Assembly (NCBI GenBank): GCA_044355655.1
Contig: JBIKXS010000008.1
Location: 23,054-87,053, forward strand
From: Burkholderiaceae bacterium
Lineage (GTDB): Bacteria > Pseudomonadota > Gammaproteobacteria > Burkholderiales > Burkholderiaceae_E
Reading direction: 5' to 3'
Length of the DNA stretch: 64,000 nt
Translations under genes and position numbers: made by a program
Shown here: positions 34,549 to 63,771 of the stretch, in pieces
Layout of the letters: every line of letters begins with the position of its first letter
How positions within the stretch are numbered: position 1 is the stretch's first letter
The notes under the pieces: generated by a model
Told to the model about the DNA's origin: nothing
The model's input: only the letters and a program-made list of their open reading frames with translations
Database searches by the model: none

Positions 34549-34817
34549 GAACGGTTCGTTGTATCAAATTAAACAAAGACGCCGAGGGTTTGGATTTCCC
34601 CCCCTACCCTGGGGCCCTTGGTCAGCGACTTTATGAATCGGTGAGCAAAGAAGCCTGGCAGGGATGGGTAAAACACCAGACGATGCTCGTGAACGAAAAT
34701 CGCCTTAACCTTGCAGACTTGCGAGCAAGAAAGTATTTGGCACAACAAATGGAAAATTATTTTTTCTCGGACGACGTCGACCAACCAGCAGGCTACGTAC
34801 CGCCAAGCAGCGATTAG
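34545..34817 (+). CDS. Fe(2+)-trafficking / oxidative damage protection protein (YggX family)
   Basis: 90 aa, [50 protein letters not shown]. Confidence 0.9.
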
Positions 34818-34837
34818 AGGAAAACATATGGCTTTGT

Positions 34838-35139
34838 TTGGTAGTAAACCCGCCGGAGAGGCTCAGGCAAGCACTGAGCCCGTAACCGCAAGGATTTATC
34901 CTGATCAGAATTGTTGCGCAACCTGCCTATGGTGGGAGGGAAAACGCAGTCTGGTAAAACAATACGAGCAGAAAGATTCGGGGATTAAAGGCAAGCCTAT
35001 TTTCTTTATCCGAATCTTTAAAGATTTGGATGGCGAATGCCTAAATTTCAAATCAAAACAATGCTCCGAACGCTTTATGCCGATTGTGGTGTGCCCTGAT
35101 TTTGAGACTTGGTTTCAGGGCGGAATTCCGAAGGAATAG
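34838..35139 (+). CDS. hypothetical Cys-rich small protein (100 aa)
   Basis: The ATG at 34838 is preceded by AGAGGAAAACAT (a strong Shine-Dalgarno sequence). The product MALFGSKPAGE...CCATCLWWEG...GECLNFKSKQCSE...VVCPDFETW has 7 Cys. The last 65 nt overlap the convergent flhB 3' end. I recognise no family. Confidence 0.45.
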
Positions 35140-36235
35140 CATCGTCGGGCAGGTGAAGTTCGGGCGCTCTGGCTGGCTCGGCTTTCACCTCATAAGCCCA
35201 GGCGATTAGCGCTGCCACAGCGCGATAAAGTGGCTCTGGGATGGCAGCGCCCACTTTGACAGCACCATCAAGCGCTCGAGCTAAAACAGGACTTTCGGTA
35301 ACAGGCACTTGATGCTCTTTGGCCACATCCCTAATCCTTAGCGCAAAGTTGTCGTGGCCCTTGGCAACGACAACAGGGGCAGCCATCTTGTCTGCCTCGT
35401 ACCTAAGGGCAACTGCGATGTGGGTTGGGTTCATCACCACCACATCGGCTTTCTCCACGGCGGCGATCATACGACTGCGCGCCATCTCGCGTTGCTTTTG
35501 ACGGATCCGACCTTTTAACTCTGGATTACCTTCACTTTCTTTAAGTTCATCGCGTAACTCCTGAATCGACATTTTCATGCGCTCTTTAAAGAGCAAAGCG
35601 GTGATAAATCCACCACTCACCCCAAGAATCAAGACAACCGCAATCAACACCAATAAGCCGCCACCAATCAGCCGCAAGGCGTATAGGATCGCGTTGGTAA
35701 GACTCATGCCAGCAAAGGCGCTCACCCCGTCGATCACAGCCCATAGGTAAATGGCAATCGCAGCAAAAATAAGGCTTGCTTTTAACAAAGCCAAGCCCAA
35801 CTGACTTAGGCCCTGTTTTGAGAAGATCCGTTTCAGCCCATTGATAAACGATATCCGTTCAGGATCGATCTTGAAATTGGATAACTTGGGTTGAAAATTG
35901 ACAAGCGCGAAAGGCCCAAGTACTGAGCCAATCCATAAGATCAATAAAACAAGAACGATCCAAATAAGGAGCGTACCGACAGGACCCAAGAGCCACTCAA
36001 TCAAAAATGGTGTGACTCGGGCTGGGTCGCTGAAGGACAAGGCCATTTTCGTCGAGTCAACCAAGGCTTGTAGAAAGCGTCCGCCTGCGACCCAAATCGC
36101 AAGCGCACCAATGCTAACCAGCACCAGCGTAGTAACGTCTGGGCTTTGTGGAAACTGCCCCTCTTCGCGCGCCTTCTCGAGTCGTCGCGGTGTTGGGTCT
36201 AGTGTTTTTTCTTGGCCGCTTTCCTCATTGGCCAC
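35075..36235 (-). CDS. flhB: flagellar type III export switch protein FlhB
   Basis: 386 aa with EKTLDPTPRRLEKAREEGQFPQS, four TM segments and the autocleavage motif NPTH (VVMNPTHIAVAL). Confidence 0.93.
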   Translation of the reverse strand: MANEESGQEKTLDPTPRRLEKAREEGQFPQSPDVTTLVLVSIGALAIWVAGGRFLQALVDSTKMALSFSDPARVTPFLIEWLLGPVGTLLIWIVLVLLILWIGSVLGPFALVNFQPKLSNFKIDPERISFINGLKRIFSKQGLSQLGLALLKASLIFAAIAIYLWAVIDGVSAFAGMSLTNAILYALRLIGGGLLVLIAVVLILGVSGGFITALLFKERMKMSIQELRDELKESEGNPELKGRIRQKQREMARSRMIAAVEKADVVVMNPTHIAVALRYEADKMAAPVVVAKGHDNFALRIRDVAKEHQVPVTESPVLARALDGAVKVGAAIPEPLYRAVAALIAWAYEVKAEPARAPELHLPDDAIPSEFRPETKSQNQGTPQSA

Positions 36236-36302: not shown

Positions 36303-37049
36303 CTAACCCTTGACCGGCGCAGCCTCTTCCTTGAGCAAGCCATCCTTCATACGTTCGGCTTTTGCCACATCCTGCTCCGGAATCAAATCGCGCAAATTGC
36401 GCAAATGGTCCTTCGCGGTAATCACTCCCAGGTCTTCTGCAACCATAAACCAAGCATAGGCGCGCACAAGATCACGCGCTGTTACTCTTCCCGCGCGATA
36501 CATGGTGCCAAGGTTGAAAGCAGCAACCCCTGAACCATTTTTTGCAGCGGTCTTCCACCACTGAGCGGCCATGATCCCGTTGGGTTGCCCGTCAGCGCCG
36601 GCTTCGTAGTGAGCACCGAGCTCAACCTGCGCATCGACGTTTCCGCCCTTCGCAGCGCGGATAAACCAATTCCAAGCTTCTTCCTTGTCTTTAGCAACGC
36701 CAATGCCATTGTTGAACATCATTGCGACTTCGTATTGAGCCTTGAGATGCCCCTCCTTAGCAAGCTTAAAGAGCTTATTGAAGGCCTCCTCATGTCGCCC
36801 AGCCGCATAGGCCGAACGAGCATCGTTATAGTCTGAGCAAGCAACAAGAAAAGAGCAGCAAATCGCGACGAGCATCACGCAGCAGAGCTTGGGTATACGC
36901 GACGAGGCCCAGACGTCAACGACCCAATCCCGGAACAAACTGCTCACCGCAATTTGCAGCGATTTCGCAGAATCTCGAGTTTGCTTAGCCAGATGCCGCG
37001 GTGAATCGGCCTGGACAGTTTCGGTAGCTACCGGCTCGTTGCAGATCAC
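36303..37049 (-). CDS. Sel1-repeat protein, probable lipoprotein (MotX-like candidate)
   Basis: 248 aa maximum ORF with a GTG start overlapping the upstream stop. The hydrophobic segment ends in the lipobox-like FLVAC-S. It is followed by 3-4 Sel1 repeats (LAKEGHLKAQYEVAMMFNNGIGVAKDKEEAWNWFIRAAKGGNVDAQVELGAHYEAG...AAQWWKTAAKNGSGVAAFNLGTMYRAGRV..DLVRAYAWF). The true start may be an internal TTG or ATG near 36875-36940. Confidence 0.7.
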   Translation of the reverse strand: MICNEPVATETVQADSPRHLAKQTRDSAKSLQIAVSSLFRDWVVDVWASSRIPKLCCVMLVAICCSFLVACSDYNDARSAYAAGRHEEAFNKLFKLAKEGHLKAQYEVAMMFNNGIGVAKDKEEAWNWFIRAAKGGNVDAQVELGAHYEAGADGQPNGIMAAQWWKTAAKNGSGVAAFNLGTMYRAGRVTARDLVRAYAWFMVAEDLGVITAKDHLRNLRDLIPEQDVAKAERMKDGLLKEEAAPVKG

Positions 37050-37459
37050 ACGTTGGATGCGACTTTACCAGCCGCTGGCTTTGCCTCTGGCGCTGCAGGC
37101 GCTGAAGGGGATGCAGGCGCACCTGCTGCTTTAGCGGGCGAACCTGGTTTCGCGCCAGAGCCAGGTGTGTCCGAGGCACTGTAATTGGCACCCAAGAGAC
37201 TGCCTACGGTGCGGGTGTAGGAGCCAACCATGCGCCTTGTAAGATCGGGGTAGTGAGGTGCGCTTGGCAAATAACCCCGAACCTGCATGCACCCGGAAGG
37301 ATCCGGACAAACGCGGCAAACAGCTTCGGCTTCGAGACGACCGATCTCGAGTCGTTCACCAATCATGAACACGCCGCCCGCTGCAAAAATCGCAGCGCCA
37401 ATGACCTTGAATACCAACTTTGTCCAGTTGCCAAGGTATTGCATCACTTCCTTGATCAT
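37046..37459 (-). CDS. hypothetical single-pass membrane protein with an Ala/Pro-rich tail
   Basis: 137 aa with the TM helix LVFKVIGAAIFAAGGVFMIG, a CRVCPDPSGC motif and the tail PGSGAKPGSPAKAAGAPASPSAPAAPEAKPAAGK. It is translationally coupled to the downstream gene (GTGA overlap). Confidence 0.55.
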   Translation of the reverse strand: MIKEVMQYLGNWTKLVFKVIGAAIFAAGGVFMIGERLEIGRLEAEAVCRVCPDPSGCMQVRGYLPSAPHYPDLTRRMVGSYTRTVGSLLGANYSASDTPGSGAKPGSPAKAAGAPASPSAPAAPEAKPAAGKVASNV

Positions 37460-37486
37460 GATCGTTTCCTTACCTGTCTATACTCA

Positions 37487-38458
37487 TCAATGCGTTTTAC
37501 TTGAAGGCGATTTCGCCCGATCCTCTGCTGGACCAGGTACATTCCCCCACCCTACCGACTTCTCCAACAAGGCCGCAGTCTCCGAAGGTACACGCCACGG
37601 ATAATTAGGCTCGCGCGTTATTAGTTTTGCATAAAGTTCGACAATATACATGTGGTTCGAGGGCAAGAAACCACGCATCTTCCCGATCACTTGCGCAACC
37701 TCATCCTTGCGCCCTTCCTTCAAAAAACCAAGACCGGCGCATCGATAATATTCGGCAGCGCGCTTGATATCGGCATGCATGCCGTAGCCATGGGCGAGAA
37801 TCTCAGCAATCCGATCGCAGGCATCGGGCGAGCCTTTATCCGCAGGTGCTTGCAAGAACTTCGCGGCAGTGCGGAATTCCTCGGCACCAAAAGCAGTGAT
37901 TAGCATCGCTTCTTTACGAGACCCCAGATCATCCGAATTGAGTTCACCTCTATTCACCTGACGCCTCGCCAGTTCCATCGCAATCGTTCCACGCCAATAC
38001 CCGGCCTCCAAATCCCCTTTTTGTGCTCTTGCAGCAAGCCTATCGAGCAATTCGCGCCGTTGAACCATTAATTGAAGCACTTTTCGATCCGATGACAAAC
38101 ACTTAGGATCAAAAATACAAGCAGTTGCTTTTTCAGCCTGTTCGCTCAAACGCTGATAGGCCAGGGCTAACTCTTTCGAGCTACGAGCGTCGTCGTCTTT
38201 CGCGTCCTTAGCTTCTTTGCCGCCTTTTGAAGAAGCGGCTTTGGCAGTATTGGTTGAGGCTGGAGCCTTACCAGAGGGATCAGGAGTTAAAGCCTTGCCA
38301 GCGGAATCGGCGGTTGAAGCCTTGCCAGCAGGATCGGGGGCTACAGCCGTCGGGCTTGACGATGCAGCGCTATGCGATATGCCACTTAAGCAAAAGGCAA
38401 AACCAAAAACGATCGCCTGGAAAAACCAGGCGTGTAGGTGGCATGGCAAACGCCGCAT
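37487..38458 (-). CDS. secreted Sel1/TPR-like repeat protein
   Basis: 323 aa with the signal-like N-terminus WFFQAIVFGFAFCLSGISHSAA and a 3 x 27-bp repeat region (DPAGKASTADSAGKALTPDPSGKAP). It also has a Sel1-like unit, AAKFLQAPADKGSPDACDRIAEILAHGYGMHADIKRAAEYYRCA. It starts 3 nt after the motB stop. Confidence 0.6.
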   Translation of the reverse strand: MRRLPCHLHAWFFQAIVFGFAFCLSGISHSAASSSPTAVAPDPAGKASTADSAGKALTPDPSGKAPASTNTAKAASSKGGKEAKDAKDDDARSSKELALAYQRLSEQAEKATACIFDPKCLSSDRKVLQLMVQRRELLDRLAARAQKGDLEAGYWRGTIAMELARRQVNRGELNSDDLGSRKEAMLITAFGAEEFRTAAKFLQAPADKGSPDACDRIAEILAHGYGMHADIKRAAEYYRCAGLGFLKEGRKDEVAQVIGKMRGFLPSNHMYIVELYAKLITREPNYPWRVPSETAALLEKSVGWGNVPGPAEDRAKSPSSKTH

Positions 38459-38461
38459 CTG

Positions 38462-39766
38462 CTACCTCGAAGGCGGCGGAAGCGTTAGCCCAGGCGAACG
38501 CGCGCGCGAAGCGGATTGACCGTCCTGCGTGCTAGCGGGCGGCATTGCACGCGCAGGAGAAGCTGCAGGCGAGGAAACCATTGGCGCGCTCGCCCCACCA
38601 GGTACGGAGGAGCTCTGGCCGCTCGACTGGCCTGCGGCGGCGCCGCCTTGCGGCCCAGCTGGAGAGGCAGCACCAGGTGAACCTGCAGCGTTAGCGGGGG
38701 CTGCACTATCACCGCGCACGCCCTTACCGAGGAAAGAAGCCGCAGGAAACGCTGGCAGGGTGTCAACGATCTTTGGCATGGTTTCTTTGATCGCATTTTT
38801 CGGTGACCCTGGCGTGTTGGGGACCCAGGTTGCACCACCACCCGTTGAAGGAACCGACCCAGCAGGCTGCAATCCGCCCTGATTTTGGGGTTCAGTCTGC
38901 CCGCTTGCTTTCGCTGCGCCACGCGCATTCAGAATGGTAATCGAAATGCGCCTATTCATCGGATCATTGGGATCTTCAGGATTGAGCTTGACCGAATCGG
39001 CAAAGCCAACAACTTGAGAAACCCGCGCGCTTTCAAGGCCACCAGCAATCAACTCCCGGCGTGCTGCATTTGCTCGATCAGAAGACAGCTCCCAATTGGT
39101 ATAACCCGAGGCCGCCCCTGGAAAAGGTTTGCCGTCGGTATGGCCCTCAATCCTTAAGGGCTGGCCGCCACCCGCCAAAACCTTACCAATCACACGCATG
39201 AGCTTTTTGGCGTAATCAGGCATGCCCGCAGAACCGCTCTCAAACATAGGGCGATTTTTCTCGTCAACAATTTGGATCCTCAAACCATCGCTCGTAACAT
39301 CCATGAAGATCTGCTTTTGGTACTCCTCAAGCGATTTGTCGCCAGCGATTTGCGATTCGACATCCGCTCGCATTTCTTCAAGCTGACCCTTTTGCTTCGT
39401 GTTGTACTGCTCGTAGGCCTCGCTTTCCGACATCTTGCGTTGCACGCTGTTGGAATCGGCGCGCTGTTCCTGTCCTGAAGCCTTGGTGACGTTATCGCCA
39501 CCGCCTTTAACGATGCTTCGAGTGTCGCCAGAACCCTGCCCACCATCCATGGCAAGACGCAATGGGTTTTGGAAGTAAGCCGAGATACCTGCCAAATCGC
39601 CTGAGGTTGTTGAGCCAAGCACCCACATCAGCAAAAAGAAGGCCATCATCGCCGTCACGAAGTCTGCGTAGGCGATCTTCCATGCACCACCGTGCCCGCC
39701 GCCAACAACTTTCTTGACGCGCTTGACAACGATTGGTGCTAATTCTTTACCGGGTGCTGAAGCCAT
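38462..39766 (-). CDS. motB: flagellar motor stator protein MotB with a C-terminal low-complexity tail of about 150 aa
   Basis: 434 aa with GGAWKIAYADFVTAMMAFFLLMW (TM plus the conserved Asp) and an OmpA-like domain (IEGHTDGKPF...NWELSSDRANAARR...NRRISI). About 153 aa of G/A/S/P-rich sequence follow. Confidence 0.9.
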   Translation of the reverse strand: MASAPGKELAPIVVKRVKKVVGGGHGGAWKIAYADFVTAMMAFFLLMWVLGSTTSGDLAGISAYFQNPLRLAMDGGQGSGDTRSIVKGGGDNVTKASGQEQRADSNSVQRKMSESEAYEQYNTKQKGQLEEMRADVESQIAGDKSLEEYQKQIFMDVTSDGLRIQIVDEKNRPMFESGSAGMPDYAKKLMRVIGKVLAGGGQPLRIEGHTDGKPFPGAASGYTNWELSSDRANAARRELIAGGLESARVSQVVGFADSVKLNPEDPNDPMNRRISITILNARGAAKASGQTEPQNQGGLQPAGSVPSTGGGATWVPNTPGSPKNAIKETMPKIVDTLPAFPAASFLGKGVRGDSAAPANAAGSPGAASPAGPQGGAAAGQSSGQSSSVPGGASAPMVSSPAASPARAMPPASTQDGQSASRARSPGLTLPPPSR

Positions 39767-39816: not shown

Positions 39817-40677
39817 TTACTTACCCTTGACCTCCTTGGCCTTTTCGTCGAATTCCTTAAAGGTTGGACGCTGGTCAGGGAACATAATTTTGCGGCCAAA
39901 TTCGCAGGCCTGTGGGGGCGTGAACCCGTTCAGACTCGCCAACAATATGGCCTTCACCGCAAACAAGGACTTGATCTCTAATTCGCCGCGTTGCGCCATC
40001 GCAGCTGCCATGGGTGCAACAACCGCGTAGGAAAAAAGAATCCCAAGGAAGGTACCCACAAGCGCTGCACCGATCAACTTACCCAATTCTGCAGGTGGCA
40101 AACCGATCGAACCCATGGTTTGAACCACACCCATCACCGCCGCAACAATCCCGAACGCGGGCAAGCCCTGGGCCATGTTGTCAACCGCGTGCACAGCAAG
40201 GTGTTCGGTCTTCAAAAACTCCTCAAGTTCTTGTTCCATCAAACCTTCGAGCTGAACAAGATTAAGTGAACCACCGAGCATCATCCGCAGGTAGTCGGTG
40301 AGAAACTCAACCAAATGATGGTTTTCAAGGACGGCGGGATATTTCTTGAAAATCTCACTGTTTTCGGGCTCTTCGATGTCAGCTTCGAGCGCCATCAAAC
40401 CATCTTTACGGATCTTGTTGAGCAACTCGAACATCAAGGCGAGCACGTCAAGCAAGAACACCTTGTTGACTTTTGAACCCTTAAATACGGCACCCAAGTC
40501 ATGCATCATCAGCTTGATCGTGCGGCTCGTGTTCGATGAGATCGTTGCACCAATTGCTAATCCGAAAATCGTCAACATCTCGGTCGGCTGCCAAAGCACC
40601 ACGGGATTTCCACCGTGCAGCACATAGCCCGCCAGGGCACAGCCAAAGCCAATGACAATTCCAAGTGGGATGACCAT
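39817..40677 (-). CDS. motA: flagellar motor stator protein MotA
   Basis: 286 aa with four TM segments and the conserved C-terminal GAALVGTFLGILFSY region. An AAGGAAGC Shine-Dalgarno sequence lies before the ATG. Confidence 0.92.
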   Translation of the reverse strand: MVIPLGIVIGFGCALAGYVLHGGNPVVLWQPTEMLTIFGLAIGATISSNTSRTIKLMMHDLGAVFKGSKVNKVFLLDVLALMFELLNKIRKDGLMALEADIEEPENSEIFKKYPAVLENHHLVEFLTDYLRMMLGGSLNLVQLEGLMEQELEEFLKTEHLAVHAVDNMAQGLPAFGIVAAVMGVVQTMGSIGLPPAELGKLIGAALVGTFLGILFSYAVVAPMAAAMAQRGELEIKSLFAVKAILLASLNGFTPPQACEFGRKIMFPDQRPTFKEFDEKAKEVKGK

Positions 40678-40767
40678 GATGCTTCCTTATTCCGTACCGA
40701 ATTAAACCTGTTTATCAAGCTAACAAAACATTGTTGCAGTTTATCAGCCGACGATGCTTCCTATCGA

Positions 40768-50531: not shown

Positions 50532-52025
50532 TTAGGGCTTATTAGAACCGAGGCCAAGTACTGGGCGACCGTTAAGCGCTTGAAGCGGCCGCGCGCCCTC
50601 ACCGAGCAATCTTGACAGCTCAGTCCACTGAGCCTTGGGCAGCGTTAGCGACTGGTGAGCGAGCAGCCAAAGGACCGATTCAGTACAGGGGGGATAAGAA
50701 AGGGATCCGGTAAACAAGACAGCTGATTGCATCGGCATGGGAAGCAGTAATTGCGGATCCATTTGCATACCCATCCAACTCAACCTTTCAGTTGAATCAA
50801 AAGGGAATCGGCGAAGCAATGTTGAAATCGCTGGGTTTCTTTGTGCCTTAGCATCGATTTCGATAGGCACAGCGATGATCAACAGTCGGCTTCCCTGTCG
50901 ATGAATAAAATGAACTGCCCCAGCAGGTGCTTTTTCACCTACAAAGGGTTCACCAGGGAAACGAAACTGTATTGAGTCAAGCGAGAACATTTCGCCGCGA
51001 AACATGGATCGGGAATTGCCATCCAAGTGCGCTGTCCACAACGGCCCCTGGCGAGACCAACTAAATCCCTGCATTTGCCAAGTTAATGCTGGCAATGCTG
51101 GACCAGTTGCACCAACCACCTGTTGTTCGGCAATTGATGGCGGCGACTGAACTTTACCGGTTGAGCACATCGAATAAGACGGATCGAGTCTACCCCAGGC
51201 CTGTGGCCCTCGCGGTCCGGACCAATCCCAGGGTTGATGTTGACCGCTCATTGAACTTGAGTTCATGCCAGCATTCAGTGAAGCGTCGGCTGAACCTTTC
51301 GATCTGCCAGCAACATCTTTATCCTCGCCCACTGGTGATTGCTTAGAAGCGTCCGCACCAGGGCGCGTAGACGCACCCGCAGCATCATCGCCATCTTTTT
51401 GCTTTTCAGTCGTTTTAGTGGCAACAACGCGACCTTTACCCGGCGTCGTTTCTGACTTTCCCGTGGGCGTATCTGGGCTTACTCTCAGCACAACCTCACC
51501 GTCTTTGCCCAATTTGTCCTGCAAGAGTCCTCTAACTTTCTCCTCGAGTGGATCAACTGCCAAAGACTGCCCTTCGGCAGCTGGCGCGACACCCGATTTG
51601 GGTACCGCACCGGACTTTTGCACAGGCGGCGCACCGGGCATCACTTTCAAATCATTAATCGGTCGACCTGAAGGCGTTTGTGCAGCATCTGCTTTAGCGT
51701 CGACTGGCCGTACTCCGACAGCTTTAGCGTCGGCGGATTTTGTGTCAGCAGCTTTTGAAAGAGCCGGCTTTAGCTCAGGGGCTTTGGCATCAACAGGCTT
51801 TGCTTCAGCCTGCTTGTTGTCGGCCTGTCTGTTATCGGCCTGCTTGTTGTCTTTTGACTTCGAAACTAAGGCATCGCTCGGCTTTGCAATTGCTGGTTTT
51901 GCCGTCGGCTCAATTAACTTTGACTTCTCGGCTGGACTCGGACTGTCTGCCGCATAAACTGAAAAAGGGGTGGCTTGGAAAGTGGCCACACCAAGCAGCA
52001 GGCTTGCTGCAAGACGCTTATTCAT
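50532..52025 (-). CDS. secreted alpha-carbonic-anhydrase-fold protein with a degenerate zinc site and a long K/A/D/P-rich N-terminal region
   Basis: Signal peptide MNKRLAASLLLGVATFQATPFSVYA. About 250 aa of low complexity follow, including 15-bp DNA repeats encoding KQADNRQADNKQAE. The C-terminal ~230 aa show alpha-CA landmarks: WDWSGPRGPQAWGRL, MCSTGKVQSPPSI, GSLSYPPCTESVLWLL, RPLQALNGRPV. However, QFHFH is replaced by QFRFP. The ATG at 52025 is preferred over the GTG at 52043. Confidence 0.7.
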   Translation of the reverse strand: MNKRLAASLLLGVATFQATPFSVYAADSPSPAEKSKLIEPTAKPAIAKPSDALVSKSKDNKQADNRQADNKQAEAKPVDAKAPELKPALSKAADTKSADAKAVGVRPVDAKADAAQTPSGRPINDLKVMPGAPPVQKSGAVPKSGVAPAAEGQSLAVDPLEEKVRGLLQDKLGKDGEVVLRVSPDTPTGKSETTPGKGRVVATKTTEKQKDGDDAAGASTRPGADASKQSPVGEDKDVAGRSKGSADASLNAGMNSSSMSGQHQPWDWSGPRGPQAWGRLDPSYSMCSTGKVQSPPSIAEQQVVGATGPALPALTWQMQGFSWSRQGPLWTAHLDGNSRSMFRGEMFSLDSIQFRFPGEPFVGEKAPAGAVHFIHRQGSRLLIIAVPIEIDAKAQRNPAISTLLRRFPFDSTERLSWMGMQMDPQLLLPMPMQSAVLFTGSLSYPPCTESVLWLLAHQSLTLPKAQWTELSRLLGEGARPLQALNGRPVLGLGSNKP

Positions 52026-52066
52026 GAGCAGAAACCTTTGCACAAATTCATCAAGAACTGGCTAAA

Positions 52067-52942
52067 TCAGGGGCGCTTGACGGCGTCAGGCGGAACGGTC
52101 GGGCCACATGCACCTGGTATGGGACAGGCCCCAGTCATTTCGGGCGACTGGTTCGCGCTTGAGTTCGAGCCTGAGCGCGCTAGATTACTAGCTGCTGTGG
52201 GTTTCACATCCGCGGTACTCACGGCATTGCGCGGCCTGGGCTTAACAACCTGCTTGCCTGGCTTAATTGCTTCAAAGGGTTCCGGGGGCTGTTGTTGAAT
52301 TGCAATTGGCGCAGGTGGTGGGACGGGCGCAGTGATCGCCGGTGGTTTGGACTCAGCAACAGGTTGCGGTTGCGGCGCAAATCGGGCCGCACAAGTTGGT
52401 AAAGCGACCTGTGACTGGTTGACCCCAAAATCACCTGGCAAAACAGCCTGTACTGGGTCTTTTTCACCTGTCGTAACCATTGCAATCAAAGGGCTAAATA
52501 ATCCAGTTTGCCGAACTGGAAATTCAGGCTCAGGATCCAACTTTGCCTGACAGTCTGTCATCCGCTTGTCGATATCACGCCTTGACAGGAAGTAACCATC
52601 GCGAAGTAAATTCGCTGTCGTCTGAACACAGTTATGCCAAACCCAAATCTTGTCAGGAGCTGGGTACTTTAGCGCTTGAGCCGACTTCGCAAACCCTTCT
52701 GCGGAACAAGATAAGAATTCCCCTTCTGTCCTAAGCTGTTCACAAAACGTTCCCCTGGGCTTGTACTGCGCCCTGCAATCAAGACTAGCCCTGTCCCAGG
52801 CCTGCGCAACCGCAGCATTTCGATCCTTCAGCGTTGGCAAGGCAGGCAAGTCATCGATCCGGGGTAATTTGGGCATTGTTTCCAAGCATCCCGCTAGTAC
52901 CAATGCGAAGCCAACAACAAAAAGTCTACAAATAGTGCGCAT
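52067..52942 (-). CDS. hypothetical Cys-rich lipoprotein with a Pro-rich C-terminal half
   Basis: 291 aa with the lipobox VLAGC-LE, at least 9 further Cys residues and the tail QPQPVAESKPPAITAPVPPPAPIAIQQQPPEP.... It lies 20 nt after fliR and 24-42 nt before the CA-like gene. I recognise no family. Confidence 0.6.
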   Translation of the reverse strand: MRTICRLFVVGFALVLAGCLETMPKLPRIDDLPALPTLKDRNAAVAQAWDRASLDCRAQYKPRGTFCEQLRTEGEFLSCSAEGFAKSAQALKYPAPDKIWVWHNCVQTTANLLRDGYFLSRRDIDKRMTDCQAKLDPEPEFPVRQTGLFSPLIAMVTTGEKDPVQAVLPGDFGVNQSQVALPTCAARFAPQPQPVAESKPPAITAPVPPPAPIAIQQQPPEPFEAIKPGKQVVKPRPRNAVSTADVKPTAASNLARSGSNSSANQSPEMTGACPIPGACGPTVPPDAVKRP

Positions 52943-54063: not shown

Positions 54064-55110
54064 CTATGCGCTCATCTTGAAGCTATCCACTAAACCCCCG
54101 ATGAGCATGGCCCAGCCATCAGCCAAAACAAATACGATGAGCTTAAGCGGAAGCGCGAAAGTAATAGGAGAAACCATCACCATGCCAAGTGCAGTAAGGA
54201 TACTTGCAACGGCAAAATCAATCGCCAAAAAAGGTAGGTAAATCACGAAACCAATTAAGAATGCAGTCCTTATTTCACTGATTGCAAATGCTGGGATCAC
54301 GGTCGTCATGGGAACATCTTCGGGCTTCGCATAGGTTTTTCCCGAAAGCTTTACAAAAAGATTCAAATCATCGGCTCGTGTTTGACGCAACATGAAGCCC
54401 TTCACAGGTTCAATACCGCGATCAATCGCTTGTTCGAAGTTTATCCTGCCTGAAACGTAAGGCTGCCAAGCATCTGCGTAAACTTTTTCAGTCACCGGCG
54501 CCATAACAGCGGCCGTTATAAAAAGCGCAAGCCCAACGAGAACCGCGTTCGGAGGGGTTGTAACCAAACCCATCGCTTGCCGCAACAAAGAAAGTACAAT
54601 TAGGATTCGAGTGAAGCTCGTCATGAGCATGAGCATCGCTGGCAGAAAAGACAAGGCCGTTAGCAGAATGACCGTCTGGACCGGTACCGAGTAGTTCGTA
54701 CCCCCTCCTTTTGAGGGAACCGATTCAAACAATGGGATGTTTTGAGCTATTGCCTCAAGCGGTGCGGTTAATGCCAGACCACCAAAAATAAACAGAAGTA
54801 CTGTTACTAGGCGTAACCCACCCAGCCCGATCGATGCTAAACCTGCAGATTGCGCTGGCTTCATCTCTTCAGCGGTTGCATTTCGCCGATCAATCAACTG
54901 TATATGTTGACTCGTCACGCCAAGCACTAATACCTCTTCTCCCTGTAAGACCTCGACCAATCGCTCGCGGTGTCCGAGTGGAAGTGTCGACAGGATTCTT
55001 AGACTACTATGTGAGGGTATCCTGCGCCACGACCTGGCGATTATGCCAACCGCTAGTGCGACCAAGGCAACAAGCACTAGGAAAATTAGGCTCGCATTTG
55101 CCGTTTCCAT
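54064..55110 (-). CDS. fliP: FliO-FliP fusion protein (export apparatus)
   Basis: 348 aa in one open frame. Residues 1-80 resemble FliO: a TM helix plus LRILSTLPLGHRERLVEVLQGEEVLVLGVTSQHIQLI, compared with E. coli LKISASASLGARERVVVVDVEDARLVLGVTAGQINLL. From about residue 100 it is full-length FliP (signal-like LRLVTVLLFIFGGLALTAPLEAIA, then PVQTVILLTALSFLPAMLMLMTSFTRILIVLSLLRQA...). Confidence 0.85.
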   Translation of the reverse strand: METANASLIFLVLVALVALAVGIIARSWRRIPSHSSLRILSTLPLGHRERLVEVLQGEEVLVLGVTSQHIQLIDRRNATAEEMKPAQSAGLASIGLGGLRLVTVLLFIFGGLALTAPLEAIAQNIPLFESVPSKGGGTNYSVPVQTVILLTALSFLPAMLMLMTSFTRILIVLSLLRQAMGLVTTPPNAVLVGLALFITAAVMAPVTEKVYADAWQPYVSGRINFEQAIDRGIEPVKGFMLRQTRADDLNLFVKLSGKTYAKPEDVPMTTVIPAFAISEIRTAFLIGFVIYLPFLAIDFAVASILTALGMVMVSPITFALPLKLIVFVLADGWAMLIGGLVDSFKMSA

Positions 55111-59456: not shown

Positions 59457-60842
59457 TCAAGCGCTCACAATACCGAAAAGACCAACAAGGCATTCATCAA
59501 GGCCAAAAGTCTCATGCATGCCCTGCTGCAAAAACTTCTGGATATCTGGCCAAAGCCTTAATGCCTCATCAAGCCCAGGATCGCTGCCAGGGACATAAGC
59601 CCCCATTGCCACCAGATCGCGGCCACGCATGTAACGTGAAATCAATTGTTTTAGTTTACGCGCTGCTTCTTGATGCCGTTGATCAGTCACTCGCGGCATG
59701 ACGCGGGAAATCGACTTTTCAATATCGATGGCCGGATAGTGGCCCGAATCAGCAAGTTCGCGGGATAAAAACAAGTGCCCGTCGAGAATGCCTCGTGCGG
59801 TGTCAGCAACCGGGTCGTGGATATCGTCGCCTTCAAGCAGGATTGTGTAAAACGCGGTAATCGACGAATCAGGCACAGCCCCATTGCCAACCTTCTCGAC
59901 CAATTCAGGCATTTTGGCAAACACCGAAGGCGGGTAGCCACGCGAAACCGGTGGTTCGCCCAAAGAAAGCGCGATCTCTCGCTGCGCCATGGCAAAACGA
60001 GTGAGTGAGTCGATAATCAAGACCACATGCCTGCCCTGATCACGGAAAAAGGTTGCCACATCAGTTGCAAACAAGGCCCCGCGCAATCGCGCAAGAGGAC
60101 TTGCATCAGCGGGCGCGGCAACCACCACCGAACGCTGCAGCGCATCAGCCCCGAGTGTGTCTTCGCAAAACTCACGAACTTCGCGACCCCGTTCCCCAAC
60201 AAGACCGATTACCACGACATCGGCCACACAACGTCTTGCAAGCATCCCGAGCAATACCGATTTACCCACCCCGGAGCCTGCAAAAATGCCTACCCGCTGG
60301 CCCCGCCCGATGGTGAGCATTGAGTTGATCGAGCGTACCCCTGAATCAAGCGGTTGATGGATCGGCTGTCGATGCAGCGGGTTGATTGGCATCGAGCGGT
60401 AAGGATTGGGGGGCTCTGAGCCGGTTGGTTTGCCATCGAGCGCTCGACCGTAACCGTCAACCACCCTTCCCAATAAGGCATCGCCAATCGGCAGCGGCGG
60501 CGCGGACTCGATGGGAACAAAGCGCTTTCCCTCTTGGGCAGGAGTGTTAGCGGGGTAAACCGCGGCACCAGGCGCAACCCGATTTGCGGGATCGATCGGC
60601 ATGAGAAAGGTTGTATGACCCGAAAAGCCAACACATTCGCATTCGACCCACCCCGAGCCTGAAGCAACCGCGGCGCGATTGCCCATGGTCATTGGCAGGC
60701 CAGTTACTTCGAGCATGAGGCCCGAGACGCGCTCGAGCCGCCCACTACGAACACCGCGTGGTGCGGCCTGGATACGTGCCGTCCAGCCGCGAAGCCGCTT
60801 TGCGGCCTGCTCAGCTCGACTCGGCGAGATCTGCTGCATCAC
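59457..60842 (-). CDS. fliI: flagellum-specific ATPase FliI
   Basis: 461 aa with Walker A GSGVGKS, Walker B VVLIIDS and TAFYTILLEGDD. Confidence 0.95.
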   Translation of the reverse strand: MMQQISPSRAEQAAKRLRGWTARIQAAPRGVRSGRLERVSGLMLEVTGLPMTMGNRAAVASGSGWVECECVGFSGHTTFLMPIDPANRVAPGAAVYPANTPAQEGKRFVPIESAPPLPIGDALLGRVVDGYGRALDGKPTGSEPPNPYRSMPINPLHRQPIHQPLDSGVRSINSMLTIGRGQRVGIFAGSGVGKSVLLGMLARRCVADVVVIGLVGERGREVREFCEDTLGADALQRSVVVAAPADASPLARLRGALFATDVATFFRDQGRHVVLIIDSLTRFAMAQREIALSLGEPPVSRGYPPSVFAKMPELVEKVGNGAVPDSSITAFYTILLEGDDIHDPVADTARGILDGHLFLSRELADSGHYPAIDIEKSISRVMPRVTDQRHQEAARKLKQLISRYMRGRDLVAMGAYVPGSDPGLDEALRLWPDIQKFLQQGMHETFGLDECLVGLFGIVSA

Positions 60843-61503
60843 GGGTATTGACGGAATCGCGCGGCAGCAGGCCCATGGCCATGAGCACTAATGCGCGCCT
60901 TGCCTCTGGCCCCACATCGATTCGCGTGCCTTCAACCTCGATGTAAGCACCCGACTCCTGGTCTGCATCGGCAAGAATTTCCATCCGGAAGGGCAGGCTT
61001 GCCTTGGTGAGGAACTCTTCCCAAATTGCACGCTGTGCTGGCGGGACCCGCAACAAGAGGTTTTCACCTGGCGAGGGCAAACGCATTAAGGCCTCTTCAA
61101 CCGCATGCAGAAAAGGCGCGCGGTCGATGTGTTCGCCCAAGGAAAGACGCTCTGCGATCGACCATGCGAGATCTGTGATGGGTTCCAGAATCGTGTCTGG
61201 CAAGTCTTTAATTTCGTGAATAAAGACTTCGAGTGTTTGGGTGAGCTCAACAATCGAGTTTGTGTGCTCATCGTAGGCTTTGTCTCGCCCTTCCGCTAGC
61301 CCTTGCTCAAACCCCTGGGTGAAACCCTCACCCACACCTTTAGCAAAACCTTCTTCGCGACCCGCGTCAAAACCTTCTCTACGGGCTGCCTCACGGATCG
61401 CCTCGATTTCCTCAACGGTGGGCCAAACGATCTCTGGTTCTGGCTCCGGAATTGGCGGGTCAAAACTCGGCGGCAACCAACGTTGAGCAGCTGTTCGAAC
61501 CAT
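60811..61503 (-). CDS. fliH: flagellar assembly protein FliH
   Basis: 230 aa with the charged repeat region EGFDAGREEGFAKGVGEGFTQGFEQGLAEGRD and a C-terminal FliI-binding-type domain. It overlaps the fliI start by 32 nt. Confidence 0.8.
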   Translation of the reverse strand: MVRTAAQRWLPPSFDPPIPEPEPEIVWPTVEEIEAIREAARREGFDAGREEGFAKGVGEGFTQGFEQGLAEGRDKAYDEHTNSIVELTQTLEVFIHEIKDLPDTILEPITDLAWSIAERLSLGEHIDRAPFLHAVEEALMRLPSPGENLLLRVPPAQRAIWEEFLTKASLPFRMEILADADQESGAYIEVEGTRIDVGPEARRALVLMAMGLLPRDSVNTRDAADLAESS

Positions 61504-61574
61504 ACTTGCCTTAGCGTTGAAGTCTGGGCTTGCTGATTAGGTCTTGGCTAGCTGATGCGGTCTAGACTGGGCAA

Positions 61575-63494
61575 TTAAGCCAAGCCCTTTTCCACATCCT
61601 CTTGCAACCACTGCTTGAAGATCGCAGCGACCACCCTTGGATCCTTTTGTACGAACTCTTTGGCGTAGGCAAGCAGCTCTTCGTATTCGGCAGCCTTTTC
61701 CTCTTCTTCGCGTTTACGCTTGTCTTCAAGGATGCGACGTTCTTCTTCGAGGCGCTGACGCTCTTCCTCTTCTTGAATTCGACGACGCTCGCGTTCGAGT
61801 TCGAGTTCGAGACGGCGCTTTTCACGAGCAGCAGGCGACATGGCTTGCAACTCCGCTTTGACACGCTCATCAAACTCTTCCTCGATACGCTGCTCCTCTT
61901 CAACCACTTTAGGCGGTGGTGGGAAGAGGATCGGACGCACAAGAAAGACTGTGACTAAACCAAGAACCGTCGCAATAATCAGGAATTTGAAAAACTCCTT
62001 CATCACGCTTGCAAAGGTCGCCTGCTTCCAAAATGGCGGCTCATCAGATACTGGTGGCGAGAAGGGTATGCTGACGACGGACACCGAATCGCCGCGCTGC
62101 TGTGAAAAACCCATTGCATCACGCACAAGCGACGTCATTTGCTGGATTTCTTGCTGGGTGTAGGCCGTTTCCTTAACATTGCCTTCAGCGTCGGTGGTCT
62201 TTTTGTAATTCACAATCACCGCGCTTGATACACGCTTCACGCTGGCGCGCGGACCGCGCACTGTTTGGATGGCGCGATCGACCTCGTAGTTAACGGTTTG
62301 CTCTTTGCGGTTTGCGTTAGTTGATACAGGACTCTGAGTGCCGGGTGGCTGAGCCTGTCCCTGACCCGCCTGTCCTTCGATCGGCGCCTGCCCGCCCTGA
62401 GGTGGCTGATTGGTCAGCGCGCCAGGGATGCCACCAGCGCTTGTGACAGGACCGCTCGCCTCAAGGTTTTGCTGCGAGCGAATGCTCGCGGGGTTTTGCC
62501 CGGAGTTAGGCTTGAAAATTTCCTCGGCGCGCTCACTTTGGGTGAAGTCGACATCGACTGCTACCTGAGCGCGAACATTGTCGCGGCCTGTGATTGGCTC
62601 AAGAATTGTGACGATCCGACGCGCTACCTGATTTTCCACCTCACCCACATACTTGATCTGGGCTGCGTCCATGCCGCTTGCCCCGTTTTTGTTCGGGTTG
62701 GGCGCAAGCAGACCGCCATCGCTATCCACGACAGTGACCATCGCCGGCAGCAGTTGAGGGACCGACGAAGAAACCAAGTGGGTGATCGCCGTGGTTTGCT
62801 GGTCATCGACTACCCGCCCCGGATGCAGCGACAAGACCACGGAAGCAGTTGGCTTGGGCTGATCACGCAGGAAAGCGGAAGTCTTGGGAATCGCGAGGTG
62901 AACGCGCGCGTCGCGGACTTGCGCGAGGGTTTTTATCGAATTAGACAGCTCAGATTCAAGTGCCCGCTGGTAATTCACCTGTTCAACAAACTGAGACGTA
63001 CCAAGCTTTTGATTTTCAAGCACTTCAAAGCCAACATTGCCGGCTTTCGGAAGGCCTTGACCGGCGAGCTTGAGCCTGGCGTCATAAACCTTGTCGCCCG
63101 GCACCATGATTGCCCCACCACCCTCAGTGAATTTGTGGGGTACTTTCATTTGCTCAAGTGCCGCAACGATAGCGGCACCATCTTTGTCGTTCACATTTGA
63201 AAAAAGAACTTTGTAATCGTCTTTGCTATCACCTGACATCGCGACCAAAACCACTGTTACGGCCACAAGCAAGATAGATACGGCGAGCAAAAGCCTGCGC
63301 AAGGGTGAGAGTTCCCGAACACGATCAGCCACCTCTTCCCAACGCTCGGGAAGGGTTTTCGGACCGCCTGGACGGCTGATTCGTTCAACGCGTGGGGGTG
63401 CAACGTCTTCTTGCACGATGGCGTTAGGGTTGACCCCGATTACGGTCGCACCGTTTTCAGCTTGTGCTGCCAGTCCTGGATTAACGTCAGCCAT
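61575..63494 (-). CDS. fliF: flagellar MS-ring protein FliF
   Basis: The ATG at 63494 (MADVNPG...) is preferred; the maximum ORF extends to 63575. It has YKVLFSNVNDKDGAAIVAALEQMKVPHKF, a second TM, then a 115-aa cytoplasmic tail. The tail ends in KDPRVVAAIFKQWLQED, which corresponds to the Salmonella FliG-binding end NDPRVVALVIRQWMSND. Confidence 0.93.
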   Translation of the reverse strand: MADVNPGLAAQAENGATVIGVNPNAIVQEDVAPPRVERISRPGGPKTLPERWEEVADRVRELSPLRRLLLAVSILLVAVTVVLVAMSGDSKDDYKVLFSNVNDKDGAAIVAALEQMKVPHKFTEGGGAIMVPGDKVYDARLKLAGQGLPKAGNVGFEVLENQKLGTSQFVEQVNYQRALESELSNSIKTLAQVRDARVHLAIPKTSAFLRDQPKPTASVVLSLHPGRVVDDQQTTAITHLVSSSVPQLLPAMVTVVDSDGGLLAPNPNKNGASGMDAAQIKYVGEVENQVARRIVTILEPITGRDNVRAQVAVDVDFTQSERAEEIFKPNSGQNPASIRSQQNLEASGPVTSAGGIPGALTNQPPQGGQAPIEGQAGQGQAQPPGTQSPVSTNANRKEQTVNYEVDRAIQTVRGPRASVKRVSSAVIVNYKKTTDAEGNVKETAYTQQEIQQMTSLVRDAMGFSQQRGDSVSVVSIPFSPPVSDEPPFWKQATFASVMKEFFKFLIIATVLGLVTVFLVRPILFPPPPKVVEEEQRIEEEFDERVKAELQAMSPAAREKRRLELELERERRRIQEEEERQRLEEERRILEDKRKREEEEKAAEYEELLAYAKEFVQKDPRVVAAIFKQWLQEDVEKGLA

Positions 63495-63771
63495 GAGATT
63501 CAGTGTAAATTGAACAAAGTTAGACCCCAAACCAAAGCAAGGAACTTTTTGCCGGCGCAAAGCGTCGACGGGCAAATTATTCCTGTCTCGAGACTCTAAG
63601 CTGCCTCATTGGGGAGCGTATGCGACTTTGGTGGGAGGCAGAAATCCAACTAATTGCGCCATGCCACGATAAATTGGTCGTTAAATGGAAACAACGGCAA
63701 TATGGTGCCATGCTCGGTTATAAGCGGTAGCAACTTATGACCAAACAATCAAAGGTAGGTATCTTGCGCAT

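Follow-up and report, generated by a model that had tools for sequence, protein, structure and literature searches.

Directly downstream of motB, the 64-kb stretch of DNA analysed here (the window) carries three consecutive genes, ORF1, ORF2 and ORF3, which probably encode a hitherto undescribed accessory of the flagellar motor. Our preferred reading, to which we assign a probability of about one half, is that their products form an envelope-spanning, lineage-specific assembly that is co-expressed with MotA and MotB, with the positioning, anchoring or activation of MotB in the periplasm as its most likely role.

The genes are read from the minus strand in the order motA, motB, ORF1, ORF2, ORF3, flhB, and the surrounding flagellar cluster also includes flgB-L and fliF-R. 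The ORF listing of the window and the raw sequence agree on this order and on the spacing described in an earlier note on this DNA, with 3 nt between motB and ORF1, 27 nt between ORF1 and ORF2, and a 4-nt overlap (GTGA) of ORF2 with ORF3 ahead of flhB (Table 1). A GAGG Shine-Dalgarno sequence lies within the final motB codons, and AAGGAAA is found ahead of ORF2. The identities of MotA, MotB and FlhB were upheld by Pfam and NCBIfam, and ORF1, ORF2 and ORF3 all have homologues whose sequences are clearly constrained, so that all three are real genes. A scan for sigma-70 promoters and terminators returned nothing above chance. A sigma-28 −10-like candidate upstream of motA, GCTGATAA, was spotted by eye only, and we place no weight on it.

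Table 1. Features of the motAB-flhB region, in window coordinates.
Feature	Coordinates	Strand	Description
motA	39817..40677	-	286 aa; E. coli-type (proton-type family) stator A subunit; TIGR03818, Pfam MotA_N + MotA_ExbB
motB	38462..39766	-	434 aa; plug + OmpA-like peptidoglycan-binding domain + long C-terminal tail; NF006548, Pfam MotB_plug + OmpA
MotB low-complexity C-terminal tail	38465..38941	-	159 aa after NRRIS; ends in conserved motif ...RSPGLTLPPPSR
ORF1	37487..38458	-	323 aa; conserved helical domain at about 37559-38197
ORF2	37046..37459	-	137 aa; one transmembrane helix, coordinates 37358-37420
ORF3	36303..37049	-	248 aa; Sel1-repeat lipoprotein (predicted); Cys71 codon 36837-36839; start codon uncertain
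flhB	35075..36235	-	flagellar export-gate switch protein, immediately 3' of the trio; Pfam Bac_export_2, E 1.2e-102

Word-indexed searches with all three proteins gave only close relatives (at least 47–58 % identity), and the narrow-lineage reading that they suggested was overturned by an exhaustive HMM search and a motif scan. The scan confirmed 121 homologous stretches of ORF2 in metagenomes, from which 80 metagenomic loci were fetched by the ORF2 motif as a survey set, with genomes carrying ORF1 or ORF3 alone lying outside the reach of a survey built on ORF2 itself. Among the assessable loci, ORF1 is found upstream in 69 of 69, MotB before ORF1 in 49 of 49, flhB downstream in 40 of 40 and ORF3 in 51 of 55, all on one strand; ORF3 is missing in some lineages (L013, L046, L050, L095). 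Measured from the stop codon of motB, ORF1 starts at −4 to +14 nt in the window as well as in L009, L011, L013, L016, the P0115 contig, L098 and L102, and ORF3, or ORF2 if ORF3 is absent, lies 8–69 nt from flhB in all lineages. The gene order is kept across deep divergence, identity to the window amounting to 59–66 % for MotA, 37–44 % for FlhB, 29–51 % for ORF2, 36–42 % for ORF3 and 23–33 % for ORF1. The complete module is also present in LSUCC0115, an isolate available in culture (PMC6952679) that has a streamlined genome of 1.84 Mb. Ralstonia has a motB gene that is followed next by che genes, and no ORF1 or ORF2 homologue was found there; likewise, 72,556 plasmid or chromid records, Ralstonia megaplasmids included, yielded no homologue. 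More than one lineage carries the module, which has been kept together in many planktonic Burkholderiales. The tie of the trio to motB claimed in the earlier note holds, the ORF1 family standing directly after motB in every context examined. Homologues lying mainly away from mot genes, which that note had named as grounds for dropping the idea, are not what we observe: the HMM search and the motif scan found none outside the motB...flhB context.

The N-terminus of ORF1 is a Sec-type signal-like hydrophobic stretch, and the protein is predicted to be secreted. It is followed at about residues 34–87 by a linker rich in K, A, P and S and, from residue 88 to about 300, by a conserved helical domain in which family alignments show no variation at Cys114, Cys214 and Cys240 and almost none at Cys120. 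One Sel1-like unit is located around residues 195–245. Pfam Sel1 (PF08238) scored only 13.7 bits (E 0.099) on ORF1 alone, below the gathering threshold of 30.7 bits, while the ORF1 family profile matched solved Sel1-repeat (SLR) proteins in the PDB at E 4e-24 via one unit; by profile comparison, ORF1 contains a divergent SLR unit. The signal-like N-terminus and this profile match agree with the initial description of ORF1 as a 323-aa secreted protein with a Sel1-like unit. The K/A/P repeats noted along with it are present as the K/A/P/S-rich stretch, but alignment marks that stretch as lineage-specific and homologues do not conserve it. No family-level match in Pfam or NCBIfam was obtained for 20 family members, and the ORF1 alignment holds no conserved stretch of 7–10 columns usable for a metagenome motif scan. 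An AF2 model of the mature domain, computed from an alignment with remote homologues, reached a pLDDT of 85.8 with nine predicted helices and no strands and superseded a full-length model from a shallow alignment (pLDDT 59 only). Foldseek comparison of the model with the PDB gave no match at E<=1e-3, the best TM-scores being 0.2–0.4. ORF1 and ORF3 were also considered as paralogues, which was rejected at an hhalign probability of only 9 %.

ORF2 has one hydrophobic helix at about residues 14–34, followed by a presumably periplasmic segment and an Ala/Pro tail, and is probably a single-pass inner-membrane protein. Its charge distribution and conserved Cys pair point to an N-in/C-out topology. 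Alignments define a conserved segment, E35..E38..R41..C48-x8-C57..GYLxxxPxYPDLxRRxxG..LGAxY, after which the Ala/Pro tail is variable. The earlier picture of a 137-aa single-pass protein with an Ala/Pro tail was thus accurate in its outline, but its CxxCxxxxxC motif has to be reduced to C48 and C57, the two of the three cysteines that are conserved across lineages. A thioredoxin-like role of the CxxC was rejected for want of conservation of the middle Cys, and a TonB/TolA-like role of the tail was rejected as well, the tail being short and not conserved between lineages. Seven diverse ORF2 members gave no Pfam or NCBIfam match at E<=1, and no relative was found in the PDB.

ORF3 is, by its sequence, a member of the Sel1-like repeat superfamily, with three repeats recognised by PF08238 (67.2 bits, E 1.2e-18) and a family profile that matches SLR structures in the PDB at E 1.5e-51. 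If a signal peptide closed by a lipobox of the form [LVI][ASTVI][GAS]-C is taken as the mark of a lipoprotein, ORF3 qualifies through FLVA-C71 and is predicted to be lipidated, leaving a mature part of 178 aa. The lipobox is kept in every lineage with an intact N-terminus (LLAA-C, MIAG-C, LVVA-C, LGLVG-C and similar), its Cys always being followed there by S-D/E-Y. The assignment of ORF3 as a Sel1 protein with a lipobox-like FLVAC, already made from the window alone, therefore stands on three repeats and a conserved lipobox. The true start codon is uncertain, since the GTG at 37049 places 70 residues ahead of the lipobox Cys, compared with signal peptides of a normal 15–25 residues in remote homologues.

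The stator encoded next to the trio is, by profile scores, of the E. coli MotAB type and not PomAB: MotA reached 341 bits against TIGR03818 (MotA1, cut-off 304) and only 22 bits with the PomA model, and MotB reached 341 bits against NF006548 (cut-off 277), with the match limited to residues 9–287. The disordered tails of module-linked MotB proteins are 69–162 aa long, rich in Pro, Ala, Gly and Ser and unalignable between lineages. Nevertheless, [LIVMF]x[LIVM][PA]x[RKP] occurs within the last 30 residues of 46 of the 49 distinct tails, as opposed to 2.4 ± 1.6 in shuffles; the motif is short, the tails are Pro-rich and the organisms related, and Ralstonia is the one outgroup. Ralstonia MotB, with 314 aa and a tail of 44 aa, is without the motif. 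It is plausible that the conserved end of the tail serves as a docking peptide.

All three trio proteins carry export or membrane signals and conserved Cys pairs typical of periplasmic proteins. In the arrangement that we infer, which concerns subcellular locations, physical contacts and an effect on stator recruitment or torque, ORF2 would sit in the inner membrane with a small disulfide-bonded domain facing the periplasm. ORF1 would be a soluble protein of helical repeats in the periplasm, likely with two disulfides, and ORF3 a lipoprotein with Sel1 repeats, probably located at the periplasmic side of the outer membrane because Ser follows the lipidated Cys. Sel1 and TPR solenoids bind extended peptides, and profiles and model suggest that ORF1 and ORF3 are Sel1-like solenoids of this peptide-binding type, the binding itself being a prediction. 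The MotB tail motif (hydrophobic-x-hydrophobic-Pro-x-Arg/Lys/Pro) may dock into ORF1, the partner present throughout, and perhaps also into ORF3, and would in this way tie the stator unit to a fixed structure of the envelope. Such docking would parallel, by analogy, the recruitment of PomB by MotX/MotY and the holding of MotB by PflA/PflB. Against this reading, ORF3 is dispensable in some lineages, and E. coli-type proton stators are generally thought to work without periplasmic scaffolds. That planktonic Burkholderiales run an E. coli-type MotAB inside a new periplasmic docking structure, with MotB captured by a motif on a newly acquired disordered tail, is a bolder version of our reading that we put forward only tentatively.

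A stator role and another flagellar role cannot be told apart by position alone, because the module is equally near flhB and lies inside one large flagellar supercluster. The trio could accordingly serve the flagellum without acting on the stator, as a component or an assembly factor, for instance as a disk or collar about the P/L rings or the rod, or as a help in early assembly expressed along with flhB. Its last gene keeps within 8–69 nt of flhB throughout, the cluster is shared with flgB-L and fliF-R, and ORF3 would be an outer-membrane lipoprotein as are FlgO and FlgP, which with FlgT offer the Vibrio comparison for a disk or collar (PMC7990780). We nevertheless regard this as an unlikely, though not negligible, explanation. 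The coupling of ORF1 to the motB stop is far tighter and more uniform than that of ORF3 to flhB, and the functional domains of FlhB are cytoplasmic or membrane-embedded, in contrast to the presumed periplasmic location of the trio. Moreover, the MotB tail motif was co-acquired in exactly the lineages that carry the trio, and Pfam and NCBIfam report no similarity to FlgO, FlgP or FlgT models. Much less probable is a non-flagellar envelope function, such as a Tol-Pal/CpoB-like or stress-related complex that hitch-hikes in the operon. A single-pass protein, a lipoprotein and a periplasmic TPR protein are likewise encoded in the operon of TolQR, the homologues of MotAB, and Sel1 proteins are functionally promiscuous, with ORF3 resembling the NCBIfam models of MerG, AlgK and ExoR as much as that of MotX. 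Set against this are the 100 % synteny with motB and flhB across deep divergence and even in a streamlined genome, the confinement of the homologues found to that context, and the plasmid and chromid records without any.

As to the possible kinship with MotX and MotY raised in the earlier note, ORF1 and/or ORF3 might be highly diverged true MotX orthologues and the module a T-ring in the Vibrio sense. MotX is, like ORF1, a small secreted SLR protein with cysteines, and it is the only NCBIfam model weakly matched by several ORF1-family members (9 of 20, best E 0.003). The ORF1 profile reaches MotX chains in the PDB at E 5e-5, and hhalign against MotX from 8z5n_C and 9yec_Ea returned probabilities of 36 % over 53 columns for ORF1 and 62 % over 120 columns for ORF3. 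The profile check against MotX proposed at the outset, however, returned repeat-level similarity only: with NF047621 (211 residues, equivalog cut-off 330 bits) ORF3 scored 28.4 bits over two short stretches and ORF1 12.8 bits, the matches span generic Sel1 units only, and generic SLR proteins outscore MotX by far with both profiles (E 1e-24 to 1e-51). MotX is absent from the Foldseek top 50 for ORF1, ORF3 is a predicted lipoprotein, which MotX is not, and the stator fits the E. coli MotAB equivalogs instead of PomAB. A MotY-like gene, coding for an N-terminal domain joined to an OmpA-like one, was found neither in the module nor among the window proteins scanned with Pfam and NCBIfam. Because the likeness to MotX is at the level of the repeat only, the trio is, by these comparisons, not a member of the MotX/MotY system, and we consider orthology highly improbable.

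Lineage-specific periplasmic scaffolds explain differing motor torque among bacteria and are so far known mainly from the sodium-driven or high-torque polar motors of Vibrio, Campylobacterota and spirochaetes, so that a compact three-gene module beside an ordinary MotAB would extend the scaffold principle. If the bolder version of our reading is true, it would represent a new, independently evolved stator anchoring and a new mode of stator recruitment, which relies on docking of a peptide in a solenoid and not on contacts of the peptidoglycan-binding domain. With a conserved tail peptide and a Sel1 solenoid, the module offers a simple test case for capture of the stator B subunit, and two new protein families, ORF1 and ORF2, are given a probable role. 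The carriers are abundant freshwater and coastal bacterioplankton, among them the isolate with the 1.84-Mb genome, and their small, thin cells are suited to cryo-ET.

Secreted TPR or SLR proteins that are required for stator function are described for Vibrio (MotX), Campylobacter and Helicobacter (PflA/PflB), Borrelia (FlcA and BB0236) and Caulobacter (FssB; PMC7990780, PMC11870540, PMC7885107). The likeness to MotX/MotY of the sodium-driven polar motors of Vibrio and Shewanella lies, beyond the build of MotX, in the proposed role, periplasmic MotX being the recruiter of the stator B subunit. The trio differs in adding the single-pass membrane protein ORF2, in having a lipoprotein as its second SLR protein, in an additional bundle of four long helices at the N-terminus of ORF1 and the four conserved cysteines of that protein, and in its E. 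coli MotAB-type stator as opposed to a PomAB-type sodium stator. PflA and PflB, which act with FlgY and PflC/D, are likewise helical-repeat proteins of the periplasm; they hold MotB, and stator incorporation depends on them, PflB being membrane-anchored (PMC11870540). They measure about 800 aa with many TPRs, to which PflA adds an AMIN-like beta-sandwich domain and PflB an antiparallel beta pair as well as a TM helix (PMC11870540), whereas the domains of ORF1 and ORF3 comprise 180–240 aa and the ORF1 model is without strands. PDB searches covering entries up to 2026 gave no sequence or fold match of PflA/PflB to ORF1 or ORF3, and as the trio has no long TPR arrays or beta domains, the kinship with these proteins also suggested in the earlier note finds no support.

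The Borrelia collar of FlbB, BB0236 and FlcA similarly combines a membrane-anchored base protein with TPR proteins into a stator-recruiting periplasmic structure (PMC7990780), but it belongs to another phylum and other protein families and is a large collar specific to periplasmic flagella. Among generic SLR proteins (HcpC, LpnE, C5321, Oxalobacter SLR proteins), ORF3 is a typical member (E 1e-51 to 1e-28) and the C-terminal half of ORF1 is SLR-like, but none of them is linked to flagella, and the N-terminal half and Cys pattern of ORF1 have no counterpart there. FssA and FssB of Caulobacter crescentus (CC_1064 and CC_2058) are Sec-secreted proteins, one with a TPR domain, that are needed for stator activity of a proton motor without large disks, and mutations in the MotB plug compensate for the fssA defect (PMC7885107). 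The fss genes differ in not being adjacent to motB, according to the genomic-context figure of that paper (PMC7885107). In function, FssA/FssB give the closest analogy for a small accessory that works on a MotAB of the common kind, as proposed for the trio.

The three small genes between motB and flhB (ORF1, ORF2 and ORF3) form a real set of envelope protein genes, coupled to motB and deeply conserved, which we refer to as the module. The earlier note's observation of this trio is confirmed, and we find the same spacings of 3 nt, 27 nt and a 4-nt overlap, the latter being GTGA. In the raw sequence, GAGG lies within the final motB codons 7 nt 5′ of the ORF1 ATG and AAGGAAA lies 5′ of ORF2, which together with the tight spacing reads as a signature of translational coupling.

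Features of the module locus and of the surrounding flagellar cluster (window coordinates)
Feature	Position	Strand	Source
motA	39817-40677	minus	ORF listing
motB	38462-39766	minus	ORF listing
ORF1, 323 aa	37487-38458	minus	ORF listing
ORF2, 137 aa	37046-37459	minus	ORF listing
ORF3, 248 aa	36303-37049	minus	ORF listing
flhB	35075-36235	minus	ORF listing
142-aa Cys-rich ORF	34711-35139	plus	
GCTGATAA site	40743-40750	minus	
two genes between fliR and flgB	50532-52942	minus	
348-aa FliO+FliP ORF	54064-55110	minus	
FliH-like gene	60811-61503		
fliF	61575-63575	minus	

The stator matches curated E. coli-type equivalogs, with MotA scoring 341 bits against TIGR03818 (cut-off 304) and MotB 341 bits against NF006548 (cut-off 277); the PomA model reaches only 22 bits. 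FlhB is identified unambiguously by Pfam and NCBIfam. As flgB-L and fliF-R lie upstream on the same strand, the module belongs to a large flagellar supercluster. Upstream of motA, the 90-nt flgL-motA spacer contains GCTGATAA, a stretch similar to GCCGATAA, the −10 element of sigma-28 promoters; we saw no convincing −35 element to go with it. The 142-aa Cys-rich ORF, convergent with flhB and overlapping its 3′ end, has no Pfam match, and a 101-103-aa gene is called in its position and orientation in four relatives (L003, L004, L006 and L008).

Elsewhere in the cluster, 72 nt separate fliF from the FliH-like gene, also on the minus strand, which is followed by fliI. No fliG was found between fliF and the FliH-like gene (60811-63575), and the FliG signature motifs EHPQ and MFxF are absent from a six-frame translation of the whole window. 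FliO (residues 30-86) and FliP (149-340) Pfam domains share one 348-aa ORF, an apparent fliO-fliP fusion. Between fliR and flgB, the cluster includes two genes of non-flagellar appearance. One product, of 503 aa, carries an alpha-type carbonic anhydrase domain at its C-terminus (PF00194, E 9e-12); the other, of 291 aa, is without a match in Pfam or NCBIfam.

ORF1 begins with a signal-peptide-like N-terminus, followed by a K/A/P/S-rich stretch that varies even between close relatives and, from residue 88, by a strongly conserved domain in which Cys114, Cys214 and Cys240 are invariant and Cys120 is nearly so, remote homologues included. AlphaFold2 on the remote-homologue alignment (pLDDT 85.8, pTM 0.74) predicted four long helices, then five shorter ones, without strands. 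Pfam detects only a sub-threshold Sel1 unit, and it is via this single unit that the family profile matches solved Sel1-repeat proteins (E 4e-24). Foldseek gave no match at E<=1e-3, its best matches being generic Sel1-like repeat (SLR) proteins with TM 0.2-0.4.

ORF2 has a single hydrophobic helix, and since basic residues precede and acidic ones follow it, an N-in/C-out topology is suggested. Its conserved segment, E..E..R......C-x8-C....GYL...P.YPDL.RR..G.........LGA.Y, is followed by a variable tail; of the CxxCxxxxxC motif noted previously, the two outer cysteines are conserved and the middle one is not. No relatives were found in Pfam, NCBIfam or the PDB. ORF3 is an ordinary Sel1 protein, its three repeats (Pfam, E 1.2e-18; E 1.5e-51 against solved SLR proteins) preceded by a lipobox, which is kept together with Cys-Ser-Asp/Glu-Tyr in all lineages with an intact N-terminus. 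By the enterobacterial rule, the Ser after Cys suggests sorting to the outer membrane. The start codon is uncertain, because the annotated GTG yields an unusually long 70-residue leader compared with a normal 15-25 residues in remote homologues; the coupled M/V-I start is kept among close relatives. One deposited ‘sel1 repeat family protein’ (P0081, NCBI MAG protein, 239 aa) joins an ORF2 N-terminus to ORF3 repeats, probably a frameshift or assembly artefact of the bin and not a natural fusion.

Word-indexed searches retrieved close relatives only, all from Betaproteobacteria/Burkholderiales metagenome bins and with identical gene order. Searching 1.84 billion representatives exhaustively with an HMM of the ORF1 alignment yielded about ten remote homologues, full-length and single-stretch (236-308 aa, E 3e-25 to 5e-11); the other matches were multi-repeat generic Sel1 proteins aligned at the Sel1 unit only. 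When the encoding contigs of six remote homologues were compared, the ORF1 homologue stood directly 3′ of motB in all five contigs reaching upstream, with a small ORF2-like gene 3′ of it in 6/6; the two longest contigs continue with a gene for an ORF3-like lipoprotein and then flhB, and a third continues directly with flhB. Of the 121 confirmed stretches obtained by scanning metagenome contigs with the highly conserved ORF2 motif, 80 were retained. The HMM survey of these loci, ascertained through ORF2, placed ORF1 upstream of ORF2 in 69/69 assessable loci, MotB upstream of ORF1 in 49/49 and FlhB downstream in 40/40, with ORF3 in 51/55 (absent from L046, L049, L050 and L095) and all genes on one strand in 80/80. 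Identities to the window in remote loci are 59-66 % for MotA, 42-58 % for MotB, 37-44 % for FlhB, 29-51 % for ORF2, 36-42 % for ORF3 and 23-33 % for ORF1, the fastest-evolving member; the gene order has thus been retained over deep divergence.

Source names on MotA clusters assign the carriers to Burkholderiales or Burkholderiaceae bins. One cluster contains LSUCC0115, a cultured coastal isolate of the MWH-UniP1 clade, whose 1.84-Mb genome (WJBW01000002.1) carries motB, ORF1, ORF2, ORF3 and flhB consecutively, without a gap between motB and ORF1. As a negative control, 72,556 plasmid and chromid records, 266 with a MotB match including 136 from Ralstonia, contained no ORF1 or ORF2 homologues; che genes come next after motB (314 aa) in Ralstonia solanacearum. 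In L095 (6208-7343), the ORF3 position between ORF2 and flhB holds genes for a 230-aa Ser/Ala-rich protein and a 137-aa protein that looks FlaG-like by eye. Some lineages (L009 1845-2318, L010 1512-1985, L012 740-1201 and the P0115 contig) have a fourth gene between the ORF1 and ORF2 homologues, absent from the window, whose product of about 150 aa combines one N-terminal hydrophobic helix in an ORF2-like layout with a C-x7-C pair and, at the C-terminus, a conserved FWRRR motif.

Module-linked MotB proteins extend 69-162 residues past the peptidoglycan-binding domain in Pro/Ala/Gly/Ser-rich tails that are unalignable across lineages, in clear contrast to a short motif 4-15 residues from the C-terminus. 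It reads RSPGLTLPPPSR in the window and GRTPVLVLPPRPQ, SSQFSLPPKPS, PPMEIPPKV or SFQLPERPG in others. The relaxed form [LIVMF]x[LIVM][PA]x[RKP] is present within the C-terminal 30 residues of 46/49 distinct tails versus 2.4 ± 1.6 after shuffling, a count over related sequences and not an independent-sample statistic. The final two motB codons may be constrained by the ORF1 ribosome-binding site; the motif lies upstream of them. In Ralstonia MotB, the sole outgroup for the correlation of tail and module, the tail is 44 residues long and lacks the motif. The conservation of a short linear motif within a disordered tail that is encoded beside peptide-binding solenoids suggests a putative docking peptide for the module solenoids. 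Comparing the window tail (38465-38941) with those of L011, L013, L070, L081 and L088 revealed a second, non-universal element upstream, which reads PQEIPxNLRAPAQFL in several remote lineages and may correspond to MPKIVDTLPAFPAASFLG in that of the window.

The earlier note had suggested that the trio could be a stator scaffold. What holds of this is the motB-coupled, deeply conserved envelope set seen in the gene-order survey; a hidden MotX/MotY or PflA/PflB system it is not. That the module acts on the stator through the MotB tail, by way of docking, anchoring or activation, is our preferred reading of these sequences, with a probability of roughly 0.5. Another periplasmic flagellar role seems rather unlikely to us, and a non-flagellar function appears highly improbable.

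Kinship of the Sel1 proteins with MotX (sequences from PDB 8z5n and 9yec) was not borne out: hhalign gave 62 % probability for the ORF3 family (28 % identity, 120 columns) and 36 % for ORF1 (53 columns), and the NCBIfam MotX equivalog scored 28 and 13 bits, respectively, against a cut-off of 330, with generic SLR proteins matching both families far better. As the module also has no MotY-like gene, the window stator is not PomAB-like, unlike that served by Vibrio-type MotX/MotY, and ORF1 and ORF3 resemble neither PflA nor PflB, 800-residue multi-TPR proteins with beta elements (PMC11870540), membership of either family is rejected. The functional analogy remains: secreted or anchored helical-repeat proteins hold stators time and again, as MotX does in Vibrio, PflA/PflB do in Campylobacterota, and FlcA and BB0236, on FlbB, do in Borrelia (PMC7990780). 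The proton motor of Caulobacter, otherwise simple, needs secreted FssA and the TPR protein FssB for its stator to be active (PMC7885107), and a recent preprint finds some TPR protein near flagellar genes in about half of flagellated species (PMC11870540). The general idea of periplasmic repeat proteins serving the motor is thus already known; these families and their architecture are new, and the module is best filed as a lineage-specific periplasmic motor accessory from two families without a curated model.
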